NCBI GenBank assembly: GCA_034429715.1 | Contig: DAOUFR010000112.1 | Location: forward strand, 3,242-67,241 | Source of the DNA: Dehalococcoidia bacterium | GTDB taxonomy: Bacteria > Chloroflexota > Dehalococcoidia > GIF9 > UBA5629 | Direction: 5' to 3' | DNA length: 64,000 nt | Shown: positions 2,868-50,163 of the stretch, in pieces | Layout: each line of letters begins with the position of its first letter | Position numbering within the stretch: position 1 is the first letter of the stretch | Translations under genes and position numbers: made by a program | Notes under the pieces: generated by a model | Databases searched by the model: none | The model's input: only the letters and a program-made list of their open reading frames with translations | Told to the model about the DNA's origin: nothing

Positions 2868-5309
2868 ATGCCCCTTCTATACGTCAGCATCGCCTGGATA
2901 GCCGGCATATTTGCAGGCTCGATCTTCACCGCCCCTGTCTGGTTGCTGGCACTCCCGTTGACCGTTTTACTGCTGATCATTCTGATGCCCGGGCACCGAA
3001 GGCCGCTGGCATTGCTGGCCGTATGCCTGCTGGCTTTTCCCGCCGGCGCCCTGCTCTATCAATCGTCTCAACATCCGCTCGACGGCACGCAGGTACAGTA
3101 CTACAACGATCAGGGCCCTGTATCGCTGGAAGGAGTCATCGACGACCAACCCGAGGTCAGAGGCAGTTCGCTGGAGTTCAAGCTCGCTGCAAACAGTATC
3201 AGCATAGCCGACAATTCCTCGTCAATCAAAGGAGGCGTGCTGGTCAGATTGCCTTTTTACCGCTCTCTCCGATACGGCGACATGCTTCGACTGAGCGGCA
3301 GGCTGGAAACTCCGCCACAATTCGAAGATTTCGATTACCGTGATTACCTGGCTAACAAGGGAATTTATTCGATCATAAATTACCCGGCGGTAACCATAAT
3401 CGGCACGGACAAAGGATTGCCCCCATTGGCCTGGATTTACGGCCTGCGCGACAGCCTGTCAGATGGTCTTTTGTTATGTCTACCCGAACCGCAGAGTTCA
3501 CTGGCGCGCGCGATACTGCTGGGATTGCGAGGGAGCCTGCCTTACGACCTTCTGCAGTCTTTCTACGCAACCGGCACCACTCACCTGATCGCTATCTCCG
3601 GCATGAATTTGACCATACTGCTCGGTATGGTGCTGGCCATGACCATCTGGATCTTCGGCAGAAAAAACAGGGCTTACTTCTGGATATCTCTGTCCTCCAT
3701 CTGGCTTTACACCGTACTTACGGGCATGCCGGCGAGCATGGTCAGAGCAGCGATCATGGGCAGCGTGTTTCTGTTAGCGGAGTTGCTGGGGAGGCAGCGC
3801 AACGGCCTGGCAGCCCTTGTGCTGGCAGCTGCACTGATGACCGTGGCAGAGCCACGCGTTCTGTGGGACATCAGCTTCCAGTTGAGCTTTCTGTCCATGC
3901 TGGGCCTAATTCTGATAGCCTCATATTTAATTGATTTCGCCAGCCCGCACCTGCCAGGCCGTCAAAGCAGGTATATTGTCTGGTTGAAAAAAATCATCGT
4001 CATCAGCTTCGCGACAACACTGGCAGCAGTAATAGCGACCTGGCCCGTGACGGCGCTCAGTTTTCACTCTTTTTCCATCGTCAGCGCGCCCGCCACCTTC
4101 TTTTCCATGCCTTCCTTCCCGGGCATTATTGTCACTTCACTGCTCACAGCCACAGCGAGCCTGATCTGGCCGCCGCTGGGAACGGTACTCGGTTGGATCG
4201 CATGGCTGTTCTTATCGTATTTCCTGCTCGTGGTCCAGATATTCAGCTCGATACCTGCAGCGTACATCCGCGAAATTGAACTGCAGCCCTGGATAGCCAT
4301 AGCCTACTATATTGCGCTGGGCCTCATACTGGCCGGCATTAAATACAGGCAGCACGTCAGGACTTTTATCAAATCATGGGCGGACAAAGCGCGGCAGGCG
4401 GCAGGCGCCCTGAAGTCGATCAACTTCAAACCGATCATCTACCCTGCGCTGGCTGTTCTGCTGGCAGGCAATATACTTGTATGGACCGCCGTTTCCCTGT
4501 TGCCGGACGGGCAGCTTCACGTAAGCATTCTCGACGTCGGCCAGGGCGAATGCATATTGGTCAGGACCCCGGACGGCCGGAATATTCTGATCGACGCCGG
4601 CCCTGACCCGGCGTCAGCCTGCGTTCAACTGGGTAAAAAGCTACCGTTTTGGGACAGGCAGATAGATATGCTTGTCCTGACGCAGCTTCAATCCGACCAC
4701 ATAGCCGGCGCAATTGAACTGCTGAAACGCTACAACGTCCGCTCTCTGGCGCTTCCTCCCACCACCAGTAAAGCCATACTGCCGGCTGAAATCGTTAAAA
4801 CCTCACATGATCAGAGAGTCGCTATACACACACTGGCCTGCGGCAAACAGTTGGACGCCGGCAGCAACCTCCGCCTGACGGTGCTCAATCCCCCGGACGA
4901 ACCTTTCAAAGGCACTGAAGACGACATCAACAATAATTCCATTGTAATCAGAATTACCTATGGAGAAGTGAGTTTCCTGCTGTGCTCCGATATCGGTATG
5001 GAGGCCGAGCAGTACCTGGCCGGCAAGAGAGCAGACCTGCAAAGCAACGTCCTCAAGGTTGCACACCACGGAAGCAAAGGATCGAGCTCGGATGAGTTCC
5101 TGACCATCGTTGATCCTGCATCCGCCGCCATATCCGCCGGCGCGGTCAACCGTTTCGGACATCCCAGCCGGGAGACGCTTGAACGGCTATCGTCTAAAGT
5201 GCCGGGGCACAATATCTTCGTTACAGCGGTCCACGGCAATATCGAGTACGTCACCGACGGGCGGAGGCTCTGGGCCGTAACCGATAAACCCGCGCCTTCT
5301 TCGCCCTGA
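2868..5309 (+). CDS. comEC: DNA internalisation competence protein ComEC/Rec2: an integral-membrane competence domain plus a C-terminal metallo-beta-lactamase domain.
   Basis: 813 aa and multi-TM. HLIAISGMNLTILLG is the ComEC signature. The C-terminal LDVGQGECILV...HHGS region is MBL-fold. It lies directly downstream of comEA. Confidence 0.85.
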   Translation: MPLLYVSIAWIAGIFAGSIFTAPVWLLALPLTVLLLIILMPGHRRPLALLAVCLLAFPAGALLYQSSQHPLDGTQVQYYNDQGPVSLEGVIDDQPEVRGSSLEFKLAANSISIADNSSSIKGGVLVRLPFYRSLRYGDMLRLSGRLETPPQFEDFDYRDYLANKGIYSIINYPAVTIIGTDKGLPPLAWIYGLRDSLSDGLLLCLPEPQSSLARAILLGLRGSLPYDLLQSFYATGTTHLIAISGMNLTILLGMVLAMTIWIFGRKNRAYFWISLSSIWLYTVLTGMPASMVRAAIMGSVFLLAELLGRQRNGLAALVLAAALMTVAEPRVLWDISFQLSFLSMLGLILIASYLIDFASPHLPGRQSRYIVWLKKIIVISFATTLAAVIATWPVTALSFHSFSIVSAPATFFSMPSFPGIIVTSLLTATASLIWPPLGTVLGWIAWLFLSYFLLVVQIFSSIPAAYIREIELQPWIAIAYYIALGLILAGIKYRQHVRTFIKSWADKARQAAGALKSINFKPIIYPALAVLLAGNILVWTAVSLLPDGQLHVSILDVGQGECILVRTPDGRNILIDAGPDPASACVQLGKKLPFWDRQIDMLVLTQLQSDHIAGAIELLKRYNVRSLALPPTTSKAILPAEIVKTSHDQRVAIHTLACGKQLDAGSNLRLTVLNPPDEPFKGTEDDINNNSIVIRITYGEVSFLLCSDIGMEAEQYLAGKRADLQSNVLKVAHHGSKGSSSDEFLTIVDPASAAISAGAVNRFGHPSRETLERLSSKVPGHNIFVTAVHGNIEYVTDGRRLWAVTDKPAPSSP

Positions 5310-5422
5310 TATACACCATGCGCGTGATTTCAAGTATAATTGCTAAAGACAATAATTAATATCATGTATATTTCACCGCATTATTCATATGAGGGGCGGG
5401 GTAATATCGAGAGGAGAAATAA

Positions 5423-6055
5423 ATGAACGAAAGATTGGCCATCTTTATCGATGGCAGTAACCTTTACCACTCGCTGAAAAACAACTTTAAACGCTTCGAT
5501 CTCAATTTCGGCGAGTTCACCAGGAAGCTGTGCGGCAGCAGGCAGCTGATACGCACCTACTACTATAACGTGCTGCAGGAGTCCAACAAGGGATCCGAGG
5601 GCTCCCGCGAGCAGCAGGAGTTTTTAGAGACGCTGCGCAAAACGCCCTACCTGGAGTTGAGGCTGGGCACCACCAAGCTTTCACAGGGTATACCGGTTGA
5701 GCGCGGCATAGACGTAATGCTGGCCACCGACCTGCTGTACTTCGCGGCCAACAATACTTATGATACGGCCGTGCTGGTCAGCGGAGACTCGGACTTCAAT
5801 TACACGGTGCAGACTGTGAAAAATATGGGCAAACACGTGGAAGTAGCCTATTTCGAGAACGCTGCATCAAGAGACCTGATTAATTCGGCTGACTTTCTGC
5901 ACCAGCTCGACAGCAAGTTTTTCACATCTCTCTGGACCTCGGGACAACGAAAACATATCCGGAGAAAACCCCGCTACAGGAGGCAGGCTGCTGTGGCAAT
6001 CGCTAATTCCCCTTCGACGGAAGACCAGGGAACCGCTCAACAAGAGCTTCTCTGA
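5423..6055 (+). CDS. NYN/LabA-like domain protein (PIN-like putative RNase).
   Basis: The N-terminal LAIFIDGSNLYHS and later VLVSGDSDF motifs are characteristic of NYN/LabA (DUF88). The C-terminus is a low-complexity basic tail. Confidence 0.7.
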   Translation: MNERLAIFIDGSNLYHSLKNNFKRFDLNFGEFTRKLCGSRQLIRTYYYNVLQESNKGSEGSREQQEFLETLRKTPYLELRLGTTKLSQGIPVERGIDVMLATDLLYFAANNTYDTAVLVSGDSDFNYTVQTVKNMGKHVEVAYFENAASRDLINSADFLHQLDSKFFTSLWTSGQRKHIRRKPRYRRQAAVAIANSPSTEDQGTAQQELL

Positions 6056-6284
6056 TTGCCGGACATTCGGAATACACCTGCTGGAGAGTGACCTCCTCCC
6101 CGCTTGCCCTCAGCACACGCACGTCAGGATATCGTTCTACCAGCAAATAGGCGGGCTGCCTGTAAGCGTAAAATGAAACGGTTCCACCGATATCCGCCCA
6201 GGTTAGAGTGGACCTGACTATCGGTGTCAGCTTCACCCCCGAAACCTCGTGCGCCTCTCCGCAGCTGATTAGCTCTTTATGCAT
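6003..6284 (-). CDS. Hypothetical 93-aa ORF. It may be the out-of-frame C-terminal continuation of the DUF2953 gene, or it may be spurious.
   Basis: It overlaps the NYN gene end by 53 nt, convergently, and the DUF2953 ORF by 16 nt in another frame. There is no recognisable domain. Confidence 0.2.
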   Translation of the reverse strand: MHKELISCGEAHEVSGVKLTPIVRSTLTWADIGGTVSFYAYRQPAYLLVERYPDVRVLRASGEEVTLQQVYSECPAIREALVERFPGLPSKGN

Positions 6285-6862
6285 GGACCTCCAGCCATTA
6301 TCTTCCTCGCCCGTCGAAATTCGGGAGAGAGGGCAAATCCCAGGCAGGGTACAAGCATGTGAACAGGACGGACCTGCAGATCGCCGCAGATATCCCCCTC
6401 CAGAAAAAGTTCTTCCTCAAAAGCGGGCTGAATTAAGACTGCGCCGTCAAACCTTTGATTTAAATACAAAACAGCAGGTATGAAAATTCCCGCCAGCATG
6501 CCGGTATAATAATCGTCCCCCAGGCTCACCCTTAGATCCGATTGAATGGACTGCACCCTCACCCGATGGTATATTTGCTTGATCAGCAGTTTGATCCTTG
6601 CTCCCAGGCCTTTGACCTGTGCAACATCAAGCATTTGGGACATCGTGTCATGTCCGGTCTTTTCAAGTTCAACCTTGGCTGGCTTTTTTTCGCGCGCGTG
6701 TGCGCTGGACATCTCCCATGACAGCAGCCCGAAAAAGCATTCAATTCTTGCCTTGAAGGTGGCGCCGCCGTGGAAGCTGGCCGACAGCCGGATGCCCAGC
6801 GGAAGCACCAGCAGTAGAATTATAAGGGCAAGTATTGCAAGAACGATGATAAGCGGGGCCAA
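6269..6862 (-). CDS. DUF2953-family membrane protein, similar to the sporulation protein YtfI.
   Basis: 197 aa with an N-terminal hydrophobic segment (MAPLIIVLAILALIILLLVLPLGIRL). It lies immediately downstream of a GerW/YtfJ homolog, as in the Bacillus ytfJ-ytfI pair. Confidence 0.5.
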   Translation of the reverse strand: MAPLIIVLAILALIILLLVLPLGIRLSASFHGGATFKARIECFFGLLSWEMSSAHAREKKPAKVELEKTGHDTMSQMLDVAQVKGLGARIKLLIKQIYHRVRVQSIQSDLRVSLGDDYYTGMLAGIFIPAVLYLNQRFDGAVLIQPAFEEELFLEGDICGDLQVRPVHMLVPCLGFALSPEFRRARKIMAGGPCIKS

Positions 6863-8943: not shown

Positions 8944-9285
8944 GTGGCCATGAAAGTACATCATTACCGGGAAGTCGAAGCTGTTGAGGCCGCTGCCGGC
9001 GTGCGCATGCACATTGTGGCCGGACCAAAGGAGGGCGCCCCCAATTTCATCATGCGTGTCTTTGAGATAGAGCCGGGCAGCAATACCCCCTTTCATCAAC
9101 ACGATTGGGAGCATGAGATTTTTATACTTGAAGGCCCTGCCGCGGTCAAACATAAGGATGGAGAGACTTCGCTCAAGCCGGGTCATGCCATTTTTATACC
9201 GGCCAATGAAATGCACGGCATTCTAAATAAGGGAGACCGCACGGTCAAACTGATCTGCGTCATACCCAACGTGGATAAAAAATAA
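8944..9285 (+). CDS. Cupin-domain protein.
   Basis: 113 aa. PFHQHDWEHEIFILEG and IPANEMHG form the two-His-motif cupin fold. Confidence 0.7.
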   Translation: MAMKVHHYREVEAVEAAAGVRMHIVAGPKEGAPNFIMRVFEIEPGSNTPFHQHDWEHEIFILEGPAAVKHKDGETSLKPGHAIFIPANEMHGILNKGDRTVKLICVIPNVDKK

Positions 9286-9310
9286 TGGCCTTTCCAGATG
9301 TCCCTATCGG

Positions 9311-9340
9311 TTGACACAGGCTTCGAACAGGGTTTAACAT
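9311..9340 (+). promoter_or_regulatory. Candidate sigma70-type promoter for the por operon: TTGACA, an 18-nt spacer, then TAACAT.
   Basis: Consensus -35 TTGACA at 9311-9316 and a weak -10 TAACAT at 9335-9340. It lies about 40 nt upstream of porG. Confidence 0.3.
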
Positions 9341-9377
9341 ATATCTTCGTTGTGTATTTGTCGACCTTTGAGAGAAA

Positions 9378-9974
9378 TTGCTGATGGCTGCTAAGTCTTC
9401 CCTCGACAATAAACCGCTGGAAATCAGGTGGCACGGACGCGGCGGCCAGGGTGCGATCACAGCCGCCAAGATAATTGCTGAGGCAGCGTATGCCAAAGGA
9501 TTCAAAGGAATAACTGCAGCGCCCTCCTTCGGGGCCGAGAGACGCGGCGCACCGGTCAGCGCTTCAACCCGGATATCCACCGAGCCTGTTCTGGTAGTAT
9601 CGCAGGTCGAATATCCACACATTGTAGTTGTACTCGATCATACACTGCTCAAATATCCCGATGTGACCCAGGGCCTGGGCAAAAACGGCTGGCTGATAGT
9701 AAATTCCCCGCTTTCGCCCAGGGAACTTGGTATAAAGGGGGAGTTCAATATAGCGACTGCCGATGCCACCAAAGTGTGCCAGGACCTCGAACTGATTGTG
9801 GCAGGGCTGGTCATAGTTAATACAGCCATACTGGGAGCGCTGGTAAAGGCAACTAAAATAGTGGATATACCGACCCTGGAAAAAGTTGTGCGCGAGCGTT
9901 TTTCGCGCAATACTGTGGATATCAACCTGGCCGCAATAAACAGGACTTACGAGATAACAAGGGTGGGCAAATAA
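9378..9974 (+). CDS. porG: 2-oxoacid (pyruvate-type):ferredoxin oxidoreductase, gamma subunit.
   Basis: EIRWHGRGGQGAITAAKIIAEAA is the POR gamma signature. The gene is followed by delta, alpha and beta subunits. Confidence 0.85.
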   Translation: MLMAAKSSLDNKPLEIRWHGRGGQGAITAAKIIAEAAYAKGFKGITAAPSFGAERRGAPVSASTRISTEPVLVVSQVEYPHIVVVLDHTLLKYPDVTQGLGKNGWLIVNSPLSPRELGIKGEFNIATADATKVCQDLELIVAGLVIVNTAILGALVKATKIVDIPTLEKVVRERFSRNTVDINLAAINRTYEITRVGK

Positions 9975-9985
9975 GGTTTAATATC

Positions 9986-10282
9986 ATGGGTACCAGAGAT
10001 TGCAACCACATCTGCGATGAGTCGTCGCCCGGCATCGGCGAGGCTGGCAGGACCGGTGAATGGCGCACGCACCTTCCGGTCATAGACGACAAGAGATGTA
10101 CTGCTTCAAAATTAAACAAGCCGACCTGCTTTCTCTGCTGGCTCTATTGCCCCGAGGCCGTCATGACCCGGTCGATACCGCCTTCGATAGACCTCGAATA
10201 CTGTAAGGGATGCGGTATCTGCGCGCAGGTCTGCCCGGTGCAGGCCATAACAATGATTCCAGAAGAGAAAAAACTGGGCTGA
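9986..10282 (+). CDS. porD: 2-oxoacid:ferredoxin oxidoreductase, delta subunit (2[4Fe-4S] ferredoxin).
   Basis: 98 aa with two Cys clusters, CTASKLNKPTCFLCWLYCP and CKGCGICAQVCP. Confidence 0.8.
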   Translation: MGTRDCNHICDESSPGIGEAGRTGEWRTHLPVIDDKRCTASKLNKPTCFLCWLYCPEAVMTRSIPPSIDLEYCKGCGICAQVCPVQAITMIPEEKKLG

Positions 10283-10286
10283 CATT

Positions 10287-11507
10287 ATGGCAGTACAGAG
10301 AAAATCAAATATACATATCCTTGACGGAAACCAGGCGGCGGCTATAGCGGCCAAGCTGAGCCGTGTGCAGGTCGTGGCCGCTTACCCCATCACTCCACAG
10401 ACACCGCTCACCGAGAAGCTCTCGCACTTCGTGGAGGACGGCCAGCTCAAGGCCGAGTACGTGGCAGTGGAAAGCGAGCACAGCGCCATGGCGGTTTGCA
10501 CCTCCGCCTCTATCGTAGGCGCCCGGGCTTTCACAGCCACCAGCTCACACGGGCTGGCATATATGCACGAGATGCTGCACTGGGCTGCCGGAGCGCGTCT
10601 GCCCATTGTCATGGCATGCGTGAACCGCGCCATCGGTGCGCCCTGGAATGTTCTCAACGACCAGCAGGACTCGATCTCGCAGCGCGATACCGGCTGGATC
10701 CAGATATATTGCCGCAATAACCAGGACATCCTGGACACGGTTATACAGGCTTATCGCATAGCAGAGAGCGTTTACGTGCCCGTCATGGTCTGCTACGACG
10801 GCTATATCCTGTCCCATACCGAGATGCCGGTCGACATACCCGAGCAGGTGGATGTCGACCGATACCTGCCGCCCTATAAGCCTCATACAACGCTCGATCC
10901 GGAAAATCCCAAGAACTACAACCTGGTTACCCTGGCCAATCCCCGTGTGGGCGTGGACGGCAAGCTCTACCACGGATATATGGAGCTCAGGTACCTTCTG
11001 CAGGAAGCTCTGCAGAACTCCAGGGAGACGATTTTACAGGCGGGAAAGGAATTCAACGGTATATTCGGGCGCGATTACGCCAATATGTTCTGGGAAGACC
11101 GCAACGAGGATGCGGAGATCACCATCGTCGCCATGGGAAGCCTGGCCTCTGAAGCGATTGTAGCGGCGGACATACTGAGAGAGGAAGGTATCAAAGTGGG
11201 CGTGCTGGGACTGCGTGTTTTCCGCCCCTTCCCCAAGCAGGACGTAGTACAGGCCCTGCGCAAGTCCCGCTTGATCGTGGTTTTCGATAAAAACATCAGC
11301 TACGGCTCGGAGGGCGCAACCTGTTCCGAGATCAAATCGGCGCTATACGGCACATATATCAACGCAGCCATCAGGAACTTCATCGTCGGGCTGGGCGGAC
11401 GCGATGTAAAAGCCCGTGAGCTTGCTGAAGCGACAAAGAAAGCAATATCATCACTAAAAGAGACGGTCACCAACCCTGATTACCCCGAATGGATCTGCCA
11501 TATTTAA
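10287..11507 (+). CDS. porA: 2-oxoacid:ferredoxin oxidoreductase, alpha subunit.
   Basis: 406 aa. The N-terminal GNQAAAIAAKLSRVQVVAAYPITPQT motif and overall domain layout are those of PorA/VorA. Confidence 0.9.
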   Translation: MAVQRKSNIHILDGNQAAAIAAKLSRVQVVAAYPITPQTPLTEKLSHFVEDGQLKAEYVAVESEHSAMAVCTSASIVGARAFTATSSHGLAYMHEMLHWAAGARLPIVMACVNRAIGAPWNVLNDQQDSISQRDTGWIQIYCRNNQDILDTVIQAYRIAESVYVPVMVCYDGYILSHTEMPVDIPEQVDVDRYLPPYKPHTTLDPENPKNYNLVTLANPRVGVDGKLYHGYMELRYLLQEALQNSRETILQAGKEFNGIFGRDYANMFWEDRNEDAEITIVAMGSLASEAIVAADILREEGIKVGVLGLRVFRPFPKQDVVQALRKSRLIVVFDKNISYGSEGATCSEIKSALYGTYINAAIRNFIVGLGGRDVKARELAEATKKAISSLKETVTNPDYPEWICHI

Positions 11508-11519
11508 GGAAGAATCAAA

Positions 11520-12425
11520 TTGAAAGCGAACGCCGTTAATCTGATCGAGAAAGAATGGATCTTGCCGGGCAACCGCACCTGCCCCGGGTGCGCCCTTTCA
11601 CTGGCATACAGACACACTCTGAAGGCGCTCGAGGGACAATGTATCGTCACGGTACCTGCCAGCTGCGCAACTGTGCTTCACGGTATGTATCCCATAACCG
11701 CTGTGAACGTACCGTGCGTCAATACGCCCTTCGCTTCCACCGGCGCTTCAGCTACCGGACTGGTGGCCGGGCTCAAGGCGCTGGGTAAGAAAGGAATAAC
11801 CGTACTGGCATTCGCCGGAGACGGAGGCACACATGATATCGGCATACAGTCGCTGAGCGGCGCGGCTGAGCGCCAATATGATTTCATGTATATTTGCTAT
11901 GACAACGAAGGCTATATGAACACGGGCAACCAGCGTTCGGGTTCCACGCCGCTGGGCGCCGTATCCGGGACCACGCCGATCCTGGGCAAACAGCAATATC
12001 AGAAAGACATGACGGCCATCATGGAGGCGCACGGCCTCCCCTACGTGGCAACATGTTCAGCCTCTTACCCGCTGGACCTTTATGAGAAAGTGAAAAAAGC
12101 TAAAACCATCGAAGGGACCAGGTTCATTCATATTCACACGCCCTGCCCGCCCGGATGGCTCTTCCCCTTCAGCGACACCATTAAATTCGGCGAGATGGCG
12201 GTGGAGACCGGCCTGGTCGTGCTCTACGAGATCGAGGACAACATCTTCAGGCTGACCTCAGCCAGTGAATCTCTGGCCCGCAAAGGAGGCAACCTGCAGC
12301 CGGTACGAGAGTACTTCAAATCTCAGGGCAGGTTCAAGACCATAACTGAGGAACAGATCGACGAGCTCCAGCAGTGGGTCAATGCCCGCTGGAAACAGTG
12401 CCTTAACAGGGCCACCAACCTTTAA
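11520..12425 (+). CDS. porB: 2-oxoacid:ferredoxin oxidoreductase, beta subunit (TPP-binding).
   Basis: TTG start. Has CPGC near the N-terminus and the GDGG TPP-binding motif (AFAGDGGTHDIG). Confidence 0.9.
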   Translation: MKANAVNLIEKEWILPGNRTCPGCALSLAYRHTLKALEGQCIVTVPASCATVLHGMYPITAVNVPCVNTPFASTGASATGLVAGLKALGKKGITVLAFAGDGGTHDIGIQSLSGAAERQYDFMYICYDNEGYMNTGNQRSGSTPLGAVSGTTPILGKQQYQKDMTAIMEAHGLPYVATCSASYPLDLYEKVKKAKTIEGTRFIHIHTPCPPGWLFPFSDTIKFGEMAVETGLVVLYEIEDNIFRLTSASESLARKGGNLQPVREYFKSQGRFKTITEEQIDELQQWVNARWKQCLNRATNL

Positions 12426-12531
12426 CCTCAACCGGCGCCGATTATTCAGCATAATCGCCCGGCTACCAATCCATTTAAATCACTGCTTGACAATCACCAC
12501 GCCATCTTGATAGACTGCATACAAATATCCC

Positions 12532-12551
12532 GCACACAAATTGTTTTGTGC
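12532..12551. promoter_or_regulatory. Imperfect 20-nt palindrome, GCACACAAATTGTTTTGTGC, immediately upstream of the first Fe-S paralog gene.
   Basis: Inverted repeat GCACA(C)AAA / TTTTGTGC, 24 nt before the start codon at 12575. It could be an operator or an RNA hairpin. Confidence 0.3.
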
Positions 12552-12574
12552 AAAAGTATATTAAGAGGTGAGAG

Positions 12575-13627
12575 ATGGCTGACCCGGCTTATGAGAAACT
12601 GGCAGGCGCCCTCAATGCTCGTTCCATGGTTTTCCCTGCTGTCAAATGCGATGAGTTCTATGACCTTGTGGAGTTCCTCTTTACTCCGGAAGAAGCTGCT
12701 ATCGTAGTGGCCATGCCGCTTGAGTTGAGCAGAGTTGAAGAGATAGCTGCCAACCTGCCCGCCAAAGACCTGAAGAAGCTGGAGGGGCAGCTTGAGGTCA
12801 TGGCTGACAAGGGCTTGATACATATCCGCGAGAGGGACGGCGTAAAGCTGTACGAGGCCCTTCCCTTTGTGCCCGGCATCACCGAATTCCAACTCATGAA
12901 AGGAATAGTCGATGAGAGGCACAAGAAGATCGCTACATTGTTGAAAAACTATTCGAAAGCAATGATCAGGACCATGCTGTCGGCCGATGCTCCTCCCCTC
13001 GAATCCTCGGCGCCCGGACGCAAGATACCGGTGGACCGCTCTATCGATGATAAGAGCACAATCGTGCCACTGCATGAGTTGAGAGAGCTGCTGCTGAAGA
13101 CGGAGTACATCTCTGTGGGAACATGCATCTGCAGACACCAGGGCGCGCTATTGGGCAGGCCGTCCGCCAAACCCGTCAACAACTGCATGGTACTGGGCGA
13201 GTCCGCAAAATTTGCCGCGGAAAGGGGATTTACAACACGTCTCACCAGGGAAGAGGCCATAAAGCGTATCGAAGAAGCGGAGGAAGCGGGGCTTATTCAT
13301 TCATTCGCCAACAGCCCGGACAGGTTCACTAATCTACTGTGCAACTGCTATAAGGATCTGTGCTTAATCATACGCATGACCAGCAAGTCCCCAGCACCCA
13401 GCACAGCCGTGAATGCGAGGTACCTGGTCAGGATAGATGAAGGCAATTGCACCGGTTGCGAGGCCTGCATACCCAGGTGCCAGATGGACGCTCTCAAGAT
13501 GGTTGACGGCAGATTATTACGGGATGAGATACGCTGCATCGGCTGCGGCCTGTGTATGTGGGTCTGCCCCACCGATGCGCTCGTGCTTGAACCCAGGCCG
13601 GCCAGCAAAATCCCCCTGCGTGGTTGA
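12575..13627 (+). CDS. Cysteine-rich Fe-S protein, paralog 1. It has an N-terminal domain, a CxCRHQ motif, a degenerate CNC..C motif, and a C-terminal 2x[4Fe-4S] ferredoxin.
   Basis: C-terminal CTGCEACIPRC...CIGCGLCMWVCP is a bacterial-ferredoxin dicluster motif. The central TCICRHQG is shared with the paralogs. Where paralogs 2 and 3 have CNCC.CHC, this copy has CNCYKDLC. Confidence 0.7.
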   Translation: MADPAYEKLAGALNARSMVFPAVKCDEFYDLVEFLFTPEEAAIVVAMPLELSRVEEIAANLPAKDLKKLEGQLEVMADKGLIHIRERDGVKLYEALPFVPGITEFQLMKGIVDERHKKIATLLKNYSKAMIRTMLSADAPPLESSAPGRKIPVDRSIDDKSTIVPLHELRELLLKTEYISVGTCICRHQGALLGRPSAKPVNNCMVLGESAKFAAERGFTTRLTREEAIKRIEEAEEAGLIHSFANSPDRFTNLLCNCYKDLCLIIRMTSKSPAPSTAVNARYLVRIDEGNCTGCEACIPRCQMDALKMVDGRLLRDEIRCIGCGLCMWVCPTDALVLEPRPASKIPLRG

Positions 13628-13654
13628 CCATATTAATAATTACGGAGGTTTGTT

Positions 13655-14710
13655 ATGGCTGACGCTATTTACGACAAACTTGCTGCCGCCTTAAATGCGC
13701 GCGGGACGACCGTTCCCTCGGTTATCTGTAAGGAATACTACGACCTGGTCGAGTTCCTCTTTACGCCGGAGGAGGCCGCAATCGCCTGCGCCATGCCCAT
13801 AGCGTATGCGACCGCTGAAGAGATCGCCGCCAATCTCGGGACCGGGGACGTGAAGAAAGTAGCTTCCCGGCTCGAGGTCATGGGCGATAAAGGTCTCATT
13901 CATATCAAGGAAAGCGGCGGTAAAAAGCTTTACGAGGGATTGCCCTTCGTACCCGGCCTGTTTGAATTTCAACTTATGAAAGGGATTGTTGACGATCGCA
14001 GCAAGAAATGGGCCGTCCTGCTAAACGATTATTCTAAAGCAGTAAAGCGTGAATTCATGTCCGGCAAGCCCATAAAAATCGAAAGGTCTGCTCCCGGCAA
14101 AACAGTTGCGGTAGGAAAAGAAGTCAGGCAGCTTGCCTGCGTAATACCTTACAAAGAGATGAGACAGCTGATCATGGATACCGAGCATATAGCTGCCGGC
14201 ACCTGCGTTTGCAGACATCAGGGCAACCTGCTGGGCAAAACGAGCTCCGAACCCATGGGCAACTGCATGGTCTTCGGCGAATCGGCGCTATTCTCAGTCG
14301 AACGCGGCTTCACCCGGAAGCTGTCCAAAGAGGAAGCGCTGAAGCTGCTGGATCAAGCCGAGGAAGCCGGCCTGGTGCACAATTACGTCAACAATCCGGG
14401 CCAGTTCACCAATCTGTTGTGCAACTGCTGCGGATGCCACTGCTTTATCCTCAGGGGCGCCAAGAACGCACCTGCCCCCAGCCAGATGGTGAATCCACGA
14501 TATCTGGTGTATATTAACGAGAAAGATTGCACGGCCTGCGAGGCCTGCATCGATCGATGCTGGATGAAAGCTCTGTCGATAAAGGATGGCAAGCTGGTGC
14601 GCGACGAAATGCGCTGCATAGGCTGCGGTATCTGTATGTGGGCATGTCCGACAGACGCGCTATATCTTGAACCGAGGGAAGCGGGCAAGGTGCCGCTCAA
14701 GAAATGCTAA
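13655..14710 (+). CDS. Cysteine-rich Fe-S protein, paralog 2, with an intact CNCCGCHC motif and a 2x[4Fe-4S] ferredoxin.
   Basis: Alignable along its full length with paralog 1. Has CTACEACIDRC...CIGCGICMWACP. Confidence 0.7.
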   Translation: MADAIYDKLAAALNARGTTVPSVICKEYYDLVEFLFTPEEAAIACAMPIAYATAEEIAANLGTGDVKKVASRLEVMGDKGLIHIKESGGKKLYEGLPFVPGLFEFQLMKGIVDDRSKKWAVLLNDYSKAVKREFMSGKPIKIERSAPGKTVAVGKEVRQLACVIPYKEMRQLIMDTEHIAAGTCVCRHQGNLLGKTSSEPMGNCMVFGESALFSVERGFTRKLSKEEALKLLDQAEEAGLVHNYVNNPGQFTNLLCNCCGCHCFILRGAKNAPAPSQMVNPRYLVYINEKDCTACEACIDRCWMKALSIKDGKLVRDEMRCIGCGICMWACPTDALYLEPREAGKVPLKKC

Positions 14711-14740
14711 ATAAAAACCAACGAGTTTATGGAGGTTACA

Positions 14741-15796
14741 ATGGTTGAGGCCGTATATGAAAAATTGATACCCGCACTCAATTCACGCAGCACCTTCCTG
14801 GTACCCTGTATCAAATGTGATGAGTTCTTTGCGCTTGCGGCTTACATGTACAGCCCTATCGAGGCCGAGATCGCCTGCGCCATGCCCCACGATTTCGCTA
14901 CAGCCCGAAAGATTTCAGCCAGTATCCCGGGCAGCCACCCTGAGAAGATTGCCGAACACCTTGAGACCATGGCGAATAAGGCGCTGATACATTCAAGAAA
15001 AGAAAACGGCGAAACGCTCTACGAGCTCCTTCCGCTGTTCCCCGGCGCCATGGAGCTTCAATTCTGGCGCGATGACAAAGAGTATCTGAGCAAGCTGGAC
15101 ATCCTGCTCAGCCAATACCTGGTAGCGATGTGGGGCCTGCGGAAAGCCGGCGCCCCGATCGTAACCGAAACGCCATCCTCCCCCAGAAAAGTAGCCGTAG
15201 AACAGGAGATCATGAGCCGCTCCACGATTATCCCCTATGCAGAGATGAAAGAACTGATCAAGCAAAGCGAGTATATCGGCGTGGCGCTCTGCCACTGCCG
15301 GCAGCTGGGCGAACAATGGGGCAAGCCGTGCTCCAGGCCAATGGACAACTGCATGATCTTGGGCTCTTCAGCTAAATTCACTATCGAAAAGGGATTGACC
15401 AAAAGACTGAATGTCGAGCAGGCGCTTCAGGTGCTGGAAGAAGCGGAAAAGGCCTGCCTGGTACATCAATACGCCGATACGCCCGACCACTTTTCCAATA
15501 TTCTATGCAATTGTTGTTCATGCCATTGCATAGCTCTTAAGGGCTATAAAAAGTCCCCGGTTCCCAGCCAGGCTGTCATCGCACGTTACCTGATCAGGAT
15601 CGACGATGAAGCCTGCACCACTTGCGAGGCCTGTCTGGAACGCTGCCAGATGGACGCATTGAAAATGGAGGGGGGCAAGCTCACGAGGGACGAAACACGC
15701 TGCATAGGCTGCGGTCTTTGCATGTATATATGTCCTGTTGAAGCACTGTCCCTGGAGAAGAGGCCTGCCGGTAAAATACCTCTGAGAACCCGTTGA
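14741..15796 (+). CDS. Cysteine-rich Fe-S protein, paralog 3, the most divergent copy, with CNCCSCHC and a 2x[4Fe-4S] ferredoxin.
   Basis: Start chosen at the second ATG, 14741, because GGAGG sits 5 nt upstream and this aligns with the MAD..Y.KL N-termini of paralogs 1 and 2. The listed ORF begins at 14729. Confidence 0.65.
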   Translation: MVEAVYEKLIPALNSRSTFLVPCIKCDEFFALAAYMYSPIEAEIACAMPHDFATARKISASIPGSHPEKIAEHLETMANKALIHSRKENGETLYELLPLFPGAMELQFWRDDKEYLSKLDILLSQYLVAMWGLRKAGAPIVTETPSSPRKVAVEQEIMSRSTIIPYAEMKELIKQSEYIGVALCHCRQLGEQWGKPCSRPMDNCMILGSSAKFTIEKGLTKRLNVEQALQVLEEAEKACLVHQYADTPDHFSNILCNCCSCHCIALKGYKKSPVPSQAVIARYLIRIDDEACTTCEACLERCQMDALKMEGGKLTRDETRCIGCGLCMYICPVEALSLEKRPAGKIPLRTR

Positions 15797-15805
15797 GGCG
15801 GGGAT

Positions 15806-16435
15806 TTAATCGTTCTCTTTATCCCTTTTGGCGGCCCGGTCACGCGCCCAACGATGTATCTCATCCAGCGCCGGCGGCGCCACCATGAATACCTCGATAT
15901 CCTGGGGGAACTGGACTAAATGCCCCTCTCGAATAAAAAGCAGGGCGACATCGCCGGGCTTTAAAGTCTCATCGATGGTTTTGCCGATAAACTGGTAGCG
16001 TTTCCTCGAGGCATCAGAGTACGCTTCGTAGACCTGTTTGGCCACTTTTTCACTGATCAGTCCGACCATCAGGCAGCGCTCCCAGTCCATGACCTCCCCG
16101 AGCAGCTCACTGGTCTCAATACACTTTAAGGATGCAGACTCCGCGCAGCGTTTATTCACCATTTCATGGCTTTTGGGATGCAGTTCCTTCAGTATCTCCA
16201 AACCGCCTTCCCCTTCCTTATCAACCGTCTCATGATAGATTAAAGTCACACGACCCAATTTACCTTCGAGCTTGACTATTAATTCATTAACCTGCTGCCA
16301 GTATTTTTCATAGAGCTCGACATATTCCACAGGCGAGTTTTTACCGGCATATACCAGGGGTACCTGCATTATCTTTCTGCTGCCTTTGAAGCTGTCGACT
16401 TCAGGTTTCTCCACTTTGCCCAGTTCCTGTGACAT
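15806..16435 (-). CDS. Hypothetical protein.
   Basis: 209-aa ORF convergent with the paralog cluster. No recognisable domain. Confidence 0.45.
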   Translation of the reverse strand: MSQELGKVEKPEVDSFKGSRKIMQVPLVYAGKNSPVEYVELYEKYWQQVNELIVKLEGKLGRVTLIYHETVDKEGEGGLEILKELHPKSHEMVNKRCAESASLKCIETSELLGEVMDWERCLMVGLISEKVAKQVYEAYSDASRKRYQFIGKTIDETLKPGDVALLFIREGHLVQFPQDIEVFMVAPPALDEIHRWARDRAAKRDKEND

Positions 16436-16604: not shown

Positions 16605-17813
16605 ATGGATTTCGACCTTGGTGGAAAGACGGATCAGCTGCGCAGGGAGATACGCCAATTTGCCCTTGCCGAGGTTGTGGGAAAACCTTACCACACCGCC
16701 ATGCTGGAAGAGGAGAGCGCGGACGAGGACTGGGAATTTTCGCTCTCGATATCCAGAAAGCTCGCACAAAAGAAATGGCTCTGTATGAACTGGCCTGAGC
16801 AATACGGGGGTATGGGCGCATCATACTGGGAACAATTTGTATACTCCGAGGAGGCCGGCTATTATGAGATTCCCGGCACCAGCATGGGCATATCCGGCAC
16901 GGGCATCAACGGCCCCAGCCTGATGTTATTCGGCAGCGAGGAGCAGAAACAGAAATACCTTCCCCTGATTGCCTCAGGTGATCCCGACGGGATATGGTGC
17001 ACCGCTTACAGCGAACCCGATTCGGGCTCCGACTACAATAAGATCAAGACTATCGCCGTCAGATCGGGAGACGACTATATTATAAACGGACAGAAAGTGT
17101 GGACGAGCTGCGCCCACCGCGCGCGCTGGTGCTGGCTGGCATGCAAGACCGACCCAACGTCGAACAAGATCCACAAAAGCATGAGCATCATCATCGTGGA
17201 TATGAAAAGCCCCGGCATTACTACCAGACCTCTCATCAATCTTTCGGGTATTCACAGTTTCAACGAGGTCTATTTCGATAACGTACGGGTGCCTGCGTCG
17301 AACCTGGTCGGCGAGGAGAATAAAGGATTCTACATGCTGATCCCCGCGCTGGCAATCGAGCGGCTCTCCCTGGCGCCTCATGTGCTGGGCACAGGACGAC
17401 GCATACTTGAATTGCTCGTCCACTATGCCAGGGAAAATAACCATAAAGGGAAACCCATGTCTGACGACCTGGTAGTGCGCCATAAGCTGGCTGAGCGCGC
17501 TGTGGAGCTCGAGACGCTGCGCCTCTTCGGGCTTGAAATAATGTGGAAAATGAGCACAGGTAAGATGCCGGGCTATGAGGCAGCCAGAAACAAGCTGTAC
17601 TGCAATATCGTCACGGACAACATGGCCAGAACCGGGCTGGAGATCGTGGGAGCCAATTCACAGATAAGCCCCGATTCCAGGTGGGCAAAACTGAGAGGCC
17701 GCTGCCAGAATCTTTACCTCGTTAATATGGGGTGGTTCAGCGCCGCCGGTACGATGGAAATACAGAAGAACGTTATCGGCCAGTTTAAGCTCGGCCTGCC
17801 GCGGGCCTATTAA
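16605..17813 (+). CDS. Acyl-CoA dehydrogenase family protein.
   Basis: 402 aa. The WCTAYSEPDSGSD..., GQKVWTS and C-terminal helical domain are typical of acyl-CoA dehydrogenases. Confidence 0.85.
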   Translation: MDFDLGGKTDQLRREIRQFALAEVVGKPYHTAMLEEESADEDWEFSLSISRKLAQKKWLCMNWPEQYGGMGASYWEQFVYSEEAGYYEIPGTSMGISGTGINGPSLMLFGSEEQKQKYLPLIASGDPDGIWCTAYSEPDSGSDYNKIKTIAVRSGDDYIINGQKVWTSCAHRARWCWLACKTDPTSNKIHKSMSIIIVDMKSPGITTRPLINLSGIHSFNEVYFDNVRVPASNLVGEENKGFYMLIPALAIERLSLAPHVLGTGRRILELLVHYARENNHKGKPMSDDLVVRHKLAERAVELETLRLFGLEIMWKMSTGKMPGYEAARNKLYCNIVTDNMARTGLEIVGANSQISPDSRWAKLRGRCQNLYLVNMGWFSAAGTMEIQKNVIGQFKLGLPRAY

Positions 17814-19375: not shown

Positions 19376-19532
19376 ATAGATAACCTCCTTAATCAGTCTG
19401 AACAGAATGATTTTTGTTATGGCAATTCTACATCAGGACTATTCTATCAACAAATTACACCTGCAACGCTTGTTTTGGCCGGCTGGCGAAGCGTATAATC
19501 ATGCACAATCAATAAGAGGGGGTTGGAATATC

Positions 19533-19982
19533 ATGGCCATCAATAAGGAACTTGCAGCGCCATGCGGTCTCTACTGCGGAGTTTGCGGAATCTACATAGC
19601 CACCAGGGACAATAATGAAAAATTTAAAGAGAAGCTGGCCCCTGTTTACGGTGTTAAGCCCGAAGACCTGGTATGCGATGGATGCCTCTCTCAGCGCGTC
19701 TGGTCTTATTGCCAGGACTGCCCGATTAAAACGTGTTGCCTGAATAAAAAAATAGAGGGATGCCACCAGTGTAACGAATTCCCCTGCCGCTACATAGATA
19801 ATTTCCCGATCCCTGTCGGCAAGAAGGTTATACTACGATCCATTCCCGGATGGCGGGAGCTCGGTACGGAAAAGTGGATACAGGAGGAGCAGAAACGCTA
19901 TAATTGTCCCCATTGCGGCGCTGCGACCTTCCGTGGAGCCAAGCGTTGTCGTAGCTGCAAGGAACCTATCGATCTCGACTAA
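19533..19982 (+). CDS. DUF3795-like Cys-rich protein.
   Basis: Cys pattern CGLYCGVCGIY...CDGC...CQDCPIKTCC...CHQCNEFPC...CPHCGA. Start chosen at the internal ATG 19533, which is preceded by AGAGGGGG. Confidence 0.55.
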   Translation: MAINKELAAPCGLYCGVCGIYIATRDNNEKFKEKLAPVYGVKPEDLVCDGCLSQRVWSYCQDCPIKTCCLNKKIEGCHQCNEFPCRYIDNFPIPVGKKVILRSIPGWRELGTEKWIQEEQKRYNCPHCGAATFRGAKRCRSCKEPIDLD

Positions 19983-30689: not shown

Positions 30690-32876
30690 TCACGTCAGTT
30701 TTCTCAGGTCCTGCTGCTCAATAATATCAATTTTTTGCTGCATGGCAAATTGTTTTGCCTGTGTTGATATATCCGACAGCGCCAGGAATACTTTGTTGCG
30801 AATACCTGCATCGAAAGCTGCGGCGTCGAACTTGGACAATTCATCCAGTCCACATACCTGACCGGCCTCGTTGCCGATGCCGATCGCAATAGTGGGTACC
30901 ACTATCTTATCGTCACGCCTGGCGAATATGTCGAATATATGCTCGATGCCTGATTTACCGAGGATCAGGGCCCGCTCATATACTTCGTAGCCCTTATTGC
31001 GGAGGAATCTGACAATGATTCCCCTCGCGTTGGCCGCTGCCGAACCGGAATGGTTTACTCCCGCCTCCACCCTGCTCTGCATTCCTATATTGGAGCGGTC
31101 AAGATGCGTGATATCCGCAACCACCGTTGCCAGGGTCTTTGCTTCAAACGCCCTGATCATCTGACGGCCGGCGAAATTCAATGCTTCCTGGCCGAGCTTG
31201 GGGATCGCTATTACCACTTTGTAGTTAATGCCGATATCATAGGCCCTTGTATCGAATCTGAAGAGAGATTCAAGCCCGACCTCCGGTTCCCCCGATGGGG
31301 CCACCAGGATACCTATACCGAGATTGACCTTGGTGATAATATCGTCCCTGATAGCAAGTACATCCACGGTATGCACTGCGCCGGAACGGCCCGTCAGCTG
31401 AGCCAGCTCATGAACCTGATATCCCCGTTGCTTCAGGAAATCGACAAGCTGTGTTTTCGGTTTCAGCTGGAATTCCAGCCATCCCTTCTTATCGGGGCTG
31501 AACTGGTACGAAGAAGCCTCGACTTCTTTCAGATCCTCAGAGCTCCAAACTTTACGCGTTTTCATATTGCGCCATTTGACGACCGGGACCGTAAATACCT
31601 CGCTACAATCCTGGCACCTGTAGTGTATGCCGACATTGCGATAATCGGTGCCGATCAATCTCAAATCCTTTCGACACTTGGGGCAGACGTACCTGCTGTC
31701 CTGCTTGAAATCCTTATCAAGTCCCACGTATCCGCAGGAAAAATGCTCTACGAGTTGCCCTTTGATGATATTGGAGGAGTCACAGCGCGGGCACCTTTCA
31801 ATGGGAACCAGCTGAAACAATCCGTCGGGATCGACATAAAACTTTTCATACGGTTGTTTGATCAGTATTCCCTCATTGGATAGAGACTCAAGTATGTTTA
31901 TCGTGTCTCCCTCTGAGGTATCGATCAGGCTGCTAACGGACGGGTATGCGTATCCCATTTTGTAGCTGAAATCGACAACCGGATTGATATCGGGAATTTT
32001 ACCGCTTACCAGCGCATCAACCAGTTTGATAACCCTCGCATCCTCGAGAATTGCCGCGCCGGCATCCTCTTGAGATGGCTGTGCCTTGGCCACGTAGGCA
32101 GACTGCTGTGCGGGAGGATTAACTATGACGGGGGAGCTCGGCTTTTTGATATCGCGCCCAAGCGGAGGTACTACTACAGGCGGTTGCTGCTGCATCTGAG
32201 GCGCTGCCGGCCTGGGAACTACTACCACCGGTGGCTCGGGCGCCGGGCTTACCGGCGTCGAAGGCACAGGCGGGGCCGGCGGTACATATGGTTGCTGTAC
32301 AGGCGGCACCTGGGTTGGCGGAGAAGCTTCGTACTGCTGAGGTTCGGGCCGGGATCTGATAATAATCCTTTCCTGTCCCGGGGAAGCAGGCTCCGGGGCA
32401 CGCGCTGGAGCAGCCGCTTCTCTCTGCACGGGTATTGACCTGGAAGGTGGTTTAATAGCTTCTTTCGGGGCAGCGGCCGCCGGCTTTGCGGCTGCATCTT
32501 CCGTAACTCCTTCCGTGCCGGGCCGTCTCAGCAGCGCTTTGGTACGTGCCAGCAACTCCCGCGGGCTGATGGGTTTGCGCAGATAAAGATCAAAACCCAG
32601 CTCCTCTACACGAGACCATGCATCCGAGTCCGGGATAGTCCCGAGAAGAACGATCAAGGCGCCATGCTGCTGCCTTATCTTGAGGCACGCTTCATAGCCG
32701 CTGACATCCGACAGCTCATCGTCAATTATTACGACATCGTAGTTGGTTTTATCCATCATTACCAGACCGTCAAGACACCCCGATGTCCCGTTTGCATCAA
32801 GGCCGCTCTGCTGCAGGATCTCGACGTTTTTCTCTTTTAAGACGGGATCGCTTGAAAGAAAGAGAATTTGACTCAT
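30690..32876 (-). CDS. Atypical response regulator: REC domain, Pro-rich linker, Cys4 zinc-ribbon region, and two tandem restriction-endonuclease-fold-like modules.
   Basis: REC has the acidic pocket DVVIIDDELSD and the K (LRKP). The linker is about 120 aa and Pro-rich. The Cys ribbon is CPRCDSS...CPKCRKD...CQDC. The two roughly 110-aa repeats carry G(R/K)SG..H..D(V/I).A.RDD...IGIG, reminiscent of Hjc/Mrr SxGxxD(I/V)(V/I)A. Confidence 0.6.
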   Translation of the reverse strand: MSQILFLSSDPVLKEKNVEILQQSGLDANGTSGCLDGLVMMDKTNYDVVIIDDELSDVSGYEACLKIRQQHGALIVLLGTIPDSDAWSRVEELGFDLYLRKPISPRELLARTKALLRRPGTEGVTEDAAAKPAAAAPKEAIKPPSRSIPVQREAAAPARAPEPASPGQERIIIRSRPEPQQYEASPPTQVPPVQQPYVPPAPPVPSTPVSPAPEPPVVVVPRPAAPQMQQQPPVVVPPLGRDIKKPSSPVIVNPPAQQSAYVAKAQPSQEDAGAAILEDARVIKLVDALVSGKIPDINPVVDFSYKMGYAYPSVSSLIDTSEGDTINILESLSNEGILIKQPYEKFYVDPDGLFQLVPIERCPRCDSSNIIKGQLVEHFSCGYVGLDKDFKQDSRYVCPKCRKDLRLIGTDYRNVGIHYRCQDCSEVFTVPVVKWRNMKTRKVWSSEDLKEVEASSYQFSPDKKGWLEFQLKPKTQLVDFLKQRGYQVHELAQLTGRSGAVHTVDVLAIRDDIITKVNLGIGILVAPSGEPEVGLESLFRFDTRAYDIGINYKVVIAIPKLGQEALNFAGRQMIRAFEAKTLATVVADITHLDRSNIGMQSRVEAGVNHSGSAAANARGIIVRFLRNKGYEVYERALILGKSGIEHIFDIFARRDDKIVVPTIAIGIGNEAGQVCGLDELSKFDAAAFDAGIRNKVFLALSDISTQAKQFAMQQKIDIIEQQDLRKLT

Positions 32877-50155: not shown

Positions 50156-50163
50156 GTTTCACA

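Follow-up and report, generated by a model that had tools for sequence, protein, structure and literature searches.

Three consecutive genes on the forward strand of a 64,000-nt stretch of Dehalococcoidia bacterium DNA (contig DAOUFR010000112.1, positions 3,242 to 67,241; hereafter the window) encode iron-sulfur proteins that contain an undescribed domain and belong to a widespread, uncharacterised family. They lie directly behind a four-subunit 2-oxoacid:ferredoxin oxidoreductase (OFOR) operon. Tentatively, and at a little under an even chance, we favour the reading that they are regulated, stand-alone, ferredoxin-driven redox proteins or reductases, in which a cysteine-rich domain is the reactive centre and the paralogs differ in a second site. 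The three genes are:

12575-13627, forward: copy 1, the "type 1" paralog, 350 aa, with the ribosome binding site GAGGTG upstream
13655-14710, forward: copy 2, the "type 2" paralog, 351 aa, with the ribosome binding site GGAGG at 13645-13649
14741-15796, forward: copy 3, the "type 3" paralog, 351 aa, with GGAGG at 14731-14735 before the ATG at 14741 (mechanically called open reading frame from 14729)

The sequence-only reading that preceded this analysis had described three co-oriented paralogs of about 350 aa behind porGDAB, with about 150 nt between porB and the first of them. Both observations hold: the spacer is 149 nt, and the open reading frame (ORF) calls leave gaps of 27 and 18 nt inside the array. 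The mechanical start of copy 3 is 12 nt too early. Because GGAGG falls inside the called ORF, just 5' of the second ATG, the start is most likely 14741 rather than 14729, and public collections carry the 351-aa form. Amino-acid identity is 59% between copies 1 and 2, 48% between 1 and 3, and 46% between 2 and 3; by tblastn within the window the copies match each other pairwise at E-values of 1e-108 to 1e-146, and there is no fourth family copy in the 64 kb. None of the three has a transmembrane segment or signal peptide (maximum Kyte-Doolittle hydropathy over 19 residues, 1.2-1.4). A 214-aa antisense ORF (12494-13138, reverse strand) covers the promoter region together with the first half of copy 1; it almost certainly arises as a shadow of the conserved forward-strand gene.

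Each protein has three parts: a predicted winged helix (residues ~1-135), a cysteine-rich α/β domain (~160-284) and a 2x[4Fe-4S] ferredoxin domain (~285-340). In copy 2, these correspond to:

13655-14059, forward: winged helix
14132-14506, forward: cysteine-rich α/β domain
14507-14674, forward: 2x[4Fe-4S] ferredoxin domain

An AlphaFold2 model of copy 2, built with 53 homologs, is compact and confident (predicted local distance difference test, pLDDT, 89.6; predicted template modelling score, pTM, 0.86), and the central domain modelled alone reaches a pLDDT of 89.2 and a pTM of 0.81.

The ferredoxin domain is the only region matched by Pfam and NCBIfam. Fer4 scores 35-49 bits in copies 1-3 (cut-off 21.1), with two CxxCxxCxxxC motifs and eight invariant cysteines, in agreement with the C-terminal 2x[4Fe-4S] ferredoxin of the sequence-only reading. 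PDB sequence matches to the array proteins are restricted to the same region. Ferredoxins of the Fer4 clan (OFOR delta, RnfB, HdrA, polyferredoxins, HgcB) share these two motifs, and the domain of the copies superposes on the ferredoxin domains of OFOR delta, HdrA and HgcB at 1-2 Å. However, it makes up only 16% of the protein; no parent family matches elsewhere, and NCBIfam scores fall far below cut-off. Against TIGR02179, the profile for the OFOR delta subunit (PorD/KorD, ~70-100 aa; cut-off 60), the copies score 27-28 bits, whereas the true PorD of the neighbouring operon (9986-10282) scores 86.6 bits. Against the RnfB profile TIGR01944 (cut-off 68.7) they score 31-38 bits, over residues 275-342 only; RnfB has a membrane anchor and an rnf operon, whereas the copies have no membrane anchor and there are no rnf genes nearby. 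Likeness to PreA of dihydropyrimidine dehydrogenase is confined to the ferredoxin-type dicluster domain.

The family extends well beyond this organism. Full-length searches return thousands of homologs, and a search with the N-terminal 282 residues, which leave out the ferredoxin domain, returns 1,757 cluster representatives at 50% identity (E<=1e-3). Named members come from Dehalococcoidia, other Chloroflexota, Actinomycetota, Clostridia, Syntrophomonadaceae and Thermodesulfobacteriota, with others from "delta" groups, Spirochaetota, Archaeoglobaceae and one Asgard archaeon; nearly all are from metagenome-assembled genomes (MAGs) of uncultured organisms. Automatic annotation calls them "4Fe-4S binding protein", RnfB or PreA, with "MarR" or "biotin operon repressor" added in some JGI names, few in number. 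The RnfB and PreA names are over-annotations that derive from the ferredoxin domain. No paper on the family was found in the literature searched.

The central domain is where the family departs from known proteins. The model gives it a β-α-β-type α/β fold of ~125 residues that carries the cysteine-rich motifs. Foldseek with the domain-only model finds no relative among PDB folds (best E 1.0, TM<=0.26), searches of Pfam and PDB sequences with a profile of 35 central domains yield only spurious PPR and DEP matches at E<=10, and NCBIfam has no match to the domain. The description of the proteins as an unrecognised family is therefore upheld over the first 280 residues, for which Pfam, NCBIfam, PDB sequences and PDB folds offer no credible match to the central domain. 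When the central-domain profile is used to search for homologs, it returns mainly short fragments. Two stand-alone central-domain homologs (L091 and L093; L numbers denote loci compared with the window) were considered as probes of gene context and discarded as fragments from frameshifted long-read assemblies.

Counting cysteines across 356 full-length homologs, in copy-2 numbering, divides the central domain into a constant and a variable part. Six central cysteines (184, 186, 204, 256, 258 and 263) are present in 356 of 356 homologs, while four facultative positions (197, 259, 261 and 262) vary, and vary together. Their commonest states are:

CCCC at 197/259/261/262: 167 sequences; no window copy
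CCCH at 197/259/261/262: 80 sequences; copy 3 (type 3), which keeps the ancestral Cys197
S-Y-D-x at 197/259/261/262: 46 sequences; copy 1 (type 1), which reads S/Y/D/L
SCCH at 197/259/261/262: 31 sequences; copy 2 (type 2)

A few homologs have Asp or Glu at 261. The canonical family motif is CxC-x10-C-x6-C ... CxCCxCCC, with ten cysteines, so that the window genes form a graded series of its reductions: of the four facultative cysteines, copy 1 has none, copy 2 has two and copy 3 has three. The sequence-only reading had counted four cysteines in the CNCCxCHC block, two of them lost in copy 1. The loss of two is correct, but the block has five cysteines, and copy 1 (CNCYKDLC) keeps three. Conservation and covariation suggest an obligatory six-cysteine site A and a facultative four-cysteine site B, and the absence of all four facultative cysteines in copy 1 fits the loss of one metal site. 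The earlier suggestion that copy 1 has subfunctionalised gains support, as an ancient event: the CNCY.D.C signature defines a conserved type-1 orthogroup of 46 cluster representatives under purifying selection. Copy 1 is a functionally diverged, maintained, specialised paralog rather than a decaying one.

What kind of centre could such a domain hold? One specific version of the favoured reading is a ferredoxin-dependent disulfide or persulfide reductase similar to ferredoxin:thioredoxin reductase (FTR) or HdrB, in which four invariant cysteines would hold a [4Fe-4S] cluster and two would form a redox-active pair. The FTR catalytic subunit and the CCG domain of HdrB are likewise small, cysteine-dense domains fed by ferredoxin-type clusters, with CxC pairs and CHC. 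Six conserved cysteines, arranged here as CxC...C...CxC....C, would be just enough for a cluster and a disulfide, and a ferredoxin domain is attached as electron donor. The CxCRH and CHC motifs, which we took to resemble CPCRHY and CHC of FTR, failed every test run: an FTR-like origin was rejected after profile, Pfam and Foldseek searches all came back without FTR. Specifically, no FTR or Hdr chain among PDB sequences matches the central-domain profile at E<=10, there is no Pfam match to FeThRed_B or CCG at E<=10, and no FTR or Hdr fold is among the Foldseek matches. The Pfam CCG profile of HdrB/GlpC-type domains, whose motif is CXnCCGXmCXXC, matches none of the 35 central domains at E<=10, and there is no CCG tripeptide pattern. 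The spacing of the copies, CxC-x10-C-x6-C...(~51)...CxCCxCxC, is unlike CPC-x16-CPC-x8-CHC, and the topology differs, the family having the ~125-residue β-α-β domain described above. In addition, H262, the histidine of the CHC motif, is a cysteine in most of the family. We consider an FTR- or HdrB-like enzyme very unlikely.

A metallothionein-like CxCCxCCC run could also serve metal handling, that is, storage, sensing or delivery of nickel, zinc or cobalt. Two homologs that are 49% identical (L007:5708-8083 and L009:7001-9272) each lie beside hypA and a cobW/hypB-type GTPase gene, in opposite gene orders; at the second locus, genes for an ArsR-family regulator and a heavy-metal P-type ATPase lie upstream as well. 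This context occurs in only two of 69 loci, however, a covalently attached 2x[4Fe-4S] wire speaks for electron transfer, and the cysteine-rich run is partly dispensable, as type 1 shows. Metal handling is highly improbable as the function of the family.

The first 135 residues, not identified as a winged helix in the sequence-only reading, are predicted to form one of the MarR/TrmB-like kind. That reading had listed invariant N-terminal blocks; they are shared by copies 1 and 2, but copy 3 reads FALAAYMYSPIEAEI and LPLFPGAMELQFWR. In the copy 2 model, residues 1-135 follow the MarR order alpha1-alpha2-alpha3-alpha4-wing-alpha5-alpha6. Foldseek matches this domain to MarR, ArsR and TrmBL2 regulators (5jbr, 4nb5, 5bpd, 7p6f), at marginal E-values of ~0.01-0.08. 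Among 40 diverse family members, Pfam finds TrmB in 15 (best E 1.4e-7) and MarR_2 in 11, and one distant member reaches 25.7 bits for a Pfam helix-turn-helix family with a cut-off of 25.6; the window copies have no Pfam helix-turn-helix match at E<=0.01.

These matches raise the possibility that the proteins are redox-sensing transcription factors, with the winged helix binding DNA (for example, their own upstream block, in autoregulation) and the iron-sulfur domains sensing O2 or the redox state of the ferredoxin pool. A MarR-like winged-helix topology is shared with MarR, TrmB and ArsR regulators, including the iron-sulfur sensors IscR, RirA, SufR and ArnR, and the pairing of such a domain with an iron-sulfur site is the working principle of Rrf2/SufR-type sensors (PMC5863699, PMC12343034 for RirA and ArnR). 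The complete MarR-type topology of the model, the Foldseek and Pfam matches, the conserved operator-like element directly upstream, and genes that usually stand alone among variable neighbours all agree with this idea, and some contexts include hyp or rubredoxin/FprA genes as possible targets. Several features fit it less well. First, known iron-sulfur regulators carry one cluster on 3-4 cysteines, whereas this family combines a dicluster ferredoxin with a ten-cysteine domain; sensors do not typically have as many as four clusters per monomer or a complete 2x[4Fe-4S] wire. Second, the recognition helix (positions 66-72) is poorly conserved and not basic, its Lys/Arg frequency being 0.07-0.37; the wing is moderately basic, and the best-conserved residues of the domain (Y93, P97, P100, G101, E104) come after the wing. 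Third, the domain has a median isoelectric point of 5.4; this is a weak argument, because genuine MarR neighbours used as controls have net charges of -5 to +6, a range that overlaps, so that charge does not discriminate DNA binding. Fourth, genes for separate TetR, MarR or AraC regulators often lie next to family genes, among them a divergent MarR gene at the array's operator-like block. Fifth, a fusion to an NAD(P)H flavoenzyme, described below, suits catalysis better than sensing, and the pTM of 0.86 indicates that the winged helix is packed into a compact body. A regulator is, on balance, unlikely.

Upstream of copy 1 are two elements:

12487-12516, forward: sigma-70-like promoter, with -35 TTGACA at 12487-12492, an 18-nt spacer with a TG extension, and -10 TAGACT at 12511-12516
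12511-12552, forward: operator-like block TAGACTGCATACAAATATCCCGCACACAAATTGTTTTGTGCA, overlapping the -10 and the transcription start, with two direct CAYACAAAT copies

A consensus scan matches the promoter hexamers at 10 of 12 positions. In six species both hexamers are invariant and the ~40 nt that follow are conserved; this conservation does not extend to the porB-proximal half of the spacer. Across loci of the clade the block takes the form TAGACTGC..CAAATAT..TGYAYACAAAT, and it lies ~64 nt 5' of the first family gene in 12 of 12 POR-clade loci that could be examined, whichever paralog leads. It stays with the array despite an inserted SDR (short-chain dehydrogenase/reductase) gene (L005, L018) or a divergent MarR gene (L017, L019, L020). 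Lying across the transcription start, it may be a repressor operator of the array. The 20-nt imperfect palindrome reported earlier at 12532-12551 exists, but it is only part of this larger promoter-proximal block. As a functional unit it was rejected: its 3' arm is kept only in the five closest loci and its 5' half clade-wide, and the clade-wide element is the -10 plus the two direct CAYACAAAT copies. An RNA leader or riboswitch was rejected as well (no Rfam match; RNAalifold -5 kcal/mol with zero compensatory pairs).

A promoter of its own bears directly on the relationship of the array to the preceding operon, which is a four-subunit OFOR of the POR/VOR type at 9378-12425 on the forward strand, in the order gamma, delta, alpha, beta by Pfam and NCBIfam:

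9378-9974, forward: porG (gamma); Pfam POR; NCBIfam PorC_KorC, below the equivalog cut-off
9986-10282, forward: porD (delta); Pfam Fer4; NCBIfam PorD_KorD, below the equivalog cut-off
10287-11507, forward: porA (alpha); Pfam POR_N and PFOR_II; NCBIfam PorA_Arch, 450 bits against a cut-off of 550
11520-12425, forward: porB (beta); Pfam TPP_enzyme_C; NCBIfam VOR-beta/PorB, below the equivalog cut-off

Because NCBIfam scores do not reach the equivalog cut-offs for POR and VOR, the operon is assigned without a specific substrate. From the position of the array, the sequence-only reading had suggested an electron-transfer partner of this enzyme; in its strongest form, the proteins would be dedicated, polyferredoxin-like acceptors that dock on the OFOR and are co-expressed with it. 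In keeping with such a role, the array lies directly 3' of porB in the same orientation in 13 of 13 close-clade loci, with no strong terminator behind porB, a different OFOR lies within three genes of the family gene in a second Dehalococcoidia clade, and the ferredoxin domain resembles an OFOR delta subunit. The proposal is weakened by the array's own conserved promoter and operator beside a non-conserved porB-proximal spacer, and by the SDR or divergent MarR genes that sit between porB and the array in seven related loci. Type-1 singletons also occur far from any OFOR, even where the POR locus keeps only type 2 (L019 and L022). Moreover, the synteny is limited to the clade in which porA is at least 88% identical, and OFOR domains are not among the 25 commonest families in a neighbour census of 69 loci. 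The ferredoxin domain keeps a redox link to reduced ferredoxin plausible, though not one peculiar to this POR, and we regard a dedicated partnership as distinctly unlikely.

The same loci illuminate the history of the paralogs. The sequence-only reading had asked whether relatives carry one or three copies beside POR; at 13 syntenic loci of related species (porA 88-97% identical), between one and four family genes follow porB, in these combinations:

Type 2 only: L011, L017, L019, L020
Types 1 and 2: L006, L012, L021
Types 2 and 3: L013, L015
Three genes: the window, L018
Four genes: L005

Type 2 is the paralog common to every POR-linked array. Clustering yields stable type-1, type-2 and type-3 orthogroups, each with its own cysteine signature conserved across species, and Ka/Ks (nonsynonymous to synonymous substitution) between window genes and orthologs is 0.03-0.11 for all three types, indicating strong purifying selection. 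The term "tandem triplication", used at first, is therefore misleading: the three genes represent ancient paralog types, not a recent local duplication. The same types recur in many independent assemblies, which excludes a duplication artefact of assembly, already thought unlikely. Single type-1 orthologs are also found at other sites (L001, L022); L019 and L022 belong to one MAG, in which the POR locus keeps only type 2 and a type-1 singleton lies elsewhere. The single array gene of L011 (8001-9053) is chimeric, with a type-1 N-terminus of ~16 residues (MIDPAYEKLAGALNAR) on a type-2 body, which suggests the footprint of unequal recombination between neighbouring paralogs that deleted copy 1. 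Single genes of the L017 kind have an N-terminal half intermediate between types 1 and 2. The simplest history would be an old array that was differentially pruned.

Gene neighbourhoods across the wider family were surveyed by running Pfam on 146 immediate neighbours at 69 non-syntenic loci. The census yields 125 neighbour families and no universal partner. The commonest are PlsY (7), TetR (6), molybdopterin oxidoreductase (5), AMP-binding (4), MFS (major facilitator superfamily; 4) and AraC (3); checked by locus, PlsY and molybdopterin oxidoreductase are each restricted to one clade. A theme of acyl-CoA and 2-oxoacid metabolism, seen in hand-picked loci, was not borne out by this unbiased census. 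Recurrent redox neighbours are SDR, OYE (old yellow enzyme), molybdopterin oxidoreductase, flavin reductase-rubredoxin and OFORs of two types, and dedicated TetR, MarR or AraC regulators recur beside family genes. Redox-enzyme neighbours together with dedicated regulators are compatible with an inducible effector enzyme.

Individual loci add detail. In six Desulfobacterales-like loci (L063, L065, L072, L073, L080 and L081, ~9060-11430), a molybdopterin oxidoreductase gene lies directly 3' of the family gene; the enzyme is of a cytoplasmic type, ~740-790 aa, with an N-terminal Fe4S4 domain, and TetR and OYE genes are often near. A Chloroflexota locus (L092:6174-8390) has a molybdopterin oxidoreductase gene convergent with a truncated family homolog. 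In the second Dehalococcoidia clade (L027, L033, L034 and L036, ~4800-6400, reverse strand), the OFOR within three genes of the family gene has an alpha subunit of 355 aa and a delta subunit of 72 aa, and is 25% identical to the window PorA; these loci also have an MFS transporter gene divergent from the family gene and an acyl-CoA synthetase gene directly 3'. An 896-aa protein in the representative library (P0269) fuses the winged helix and cysteine-rich module to Fer4_20 and Pyr_redox_2, with a further Fer4 motif. Its fusion partner is a GltD/NfnB-like NAD(P)H flavoprotein, and it is a single example; the fusion places the cysteine-rich domain at the end of an electron-transfer chain.

Immediately 3' of the array in the window is a gene that always adjoins it in the clade:

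15806-16435, reverse: conserved 209-aa hypothetical protein, convergent with the array

It follows the array at 62-90% identity in 11 syntenic loci and has no match in Pfam, NCBIfam or the PDB. Two genes 3' of the array, also syntenic in the clade, is a PimC-like acyl-CoA dehydrogenase (16605-17813, forward), and a cysteine-rich DUF3795 protein lies at 19407-19982 (forward). Farther away, the sole Rfam match at gathering level in the window is a full-length tmRNA gene (1466-1813, reverse; RF00023, 154.8 bits). The architecture of a 728-aa protein (30690-32876, reverse) is unusual: a response-regulator receiver is joined to a TackOD1 output domain, with an Mrr-type restriction-endonuclease domain at the C-terminus. 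A LarA-like (Lar_N) protein (39172-40644, reverse), an NrfD-type membrane subunit (49774-51318, forward) and a PFL-like glycyl-radical enzyme (56192-58792, reverse) together fit a strictly anaerobic lifestyle.

How might the array proteins work? The dicluster ferredoxin (a domain that commonly serves as an electron wire), the NAD(P)H flavoprotein fusion and the redox and regulator neighbours favour a redox protein or reductase. The three genes would form one regulated transcription unit of long-diverged, soluble iron-sulfur paralogs, expressed from the array's own promoter, with a repressor acting on the conserved block; in some relatives this may be the divergent MarR. The ferredoxin domain would be the wire through which low-potential electrons enter from reduced ferredoxin, supplied, for example, by the neighbouring 2-oxoacid oxidoreductase. 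Electrons would pass to one or two central metal-sulfur centres, namely the six-cysteine site A and the dispensable four-cysteine site B, where they would either reduce a substrate or be relayed onward. Copy 1 would have no site B, copy 2 one that lacks two ligands, and copy 3 a Cys3His site; since the paralogs differ in their complement for this site, they probably differ in redox tuning or acceptor. The winged helix is most likely a structural, docking or ligand-binding module.

Several points weigh against the proposal that these are ferredoxin-driven redox proteins or reductases. An enzyme has no obvious need for an N-terminal domain with the full topology of a DNA-binding MarR protein. 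With no family-wide partner or pathway, the label "reductase" is generic. A single library sequence without genomic context represents the GltD fusion, and the division into sites A and B derives from conservation and covariation.

It is possible, though doubtful, that the proteins represent something new in kind: the central domain may be a new class of metal-sulfur site, and define a family of ferredoxin-driven reductases in anaerobes that is broad in phylogeny and has gone unrecognised until now, or the family may be the first transcription factor to read the ferredoxin pool through its own ferredoxin domain. A new cofactor would comprise a six-cysteine centre plus an optional second four-cysteine cluster, and the six-cysteine centre would be either an 8Fe double-cubane or P-cluster-like site, or a [4Fe-4S] cluster with an adjacent reactive cysteine pair. 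The stepwise loss of four cysteines across the paralogs provides an experimental handle. If either form of this idea is true, the paralogs would offer a natural series, with 2, 1.5 and 1 central sites, for dissecting the cofactor. If the proteins prove to be merely elaborate electron carriers, a widespread mis-annotation would be corrected, and the domain would deserve a Pfam entry. Should the domain carry a new cofactor arrangement or a new ferredoxin-dependent activity, a gap would be filled in the electron-transfer maps of many anaerobes.

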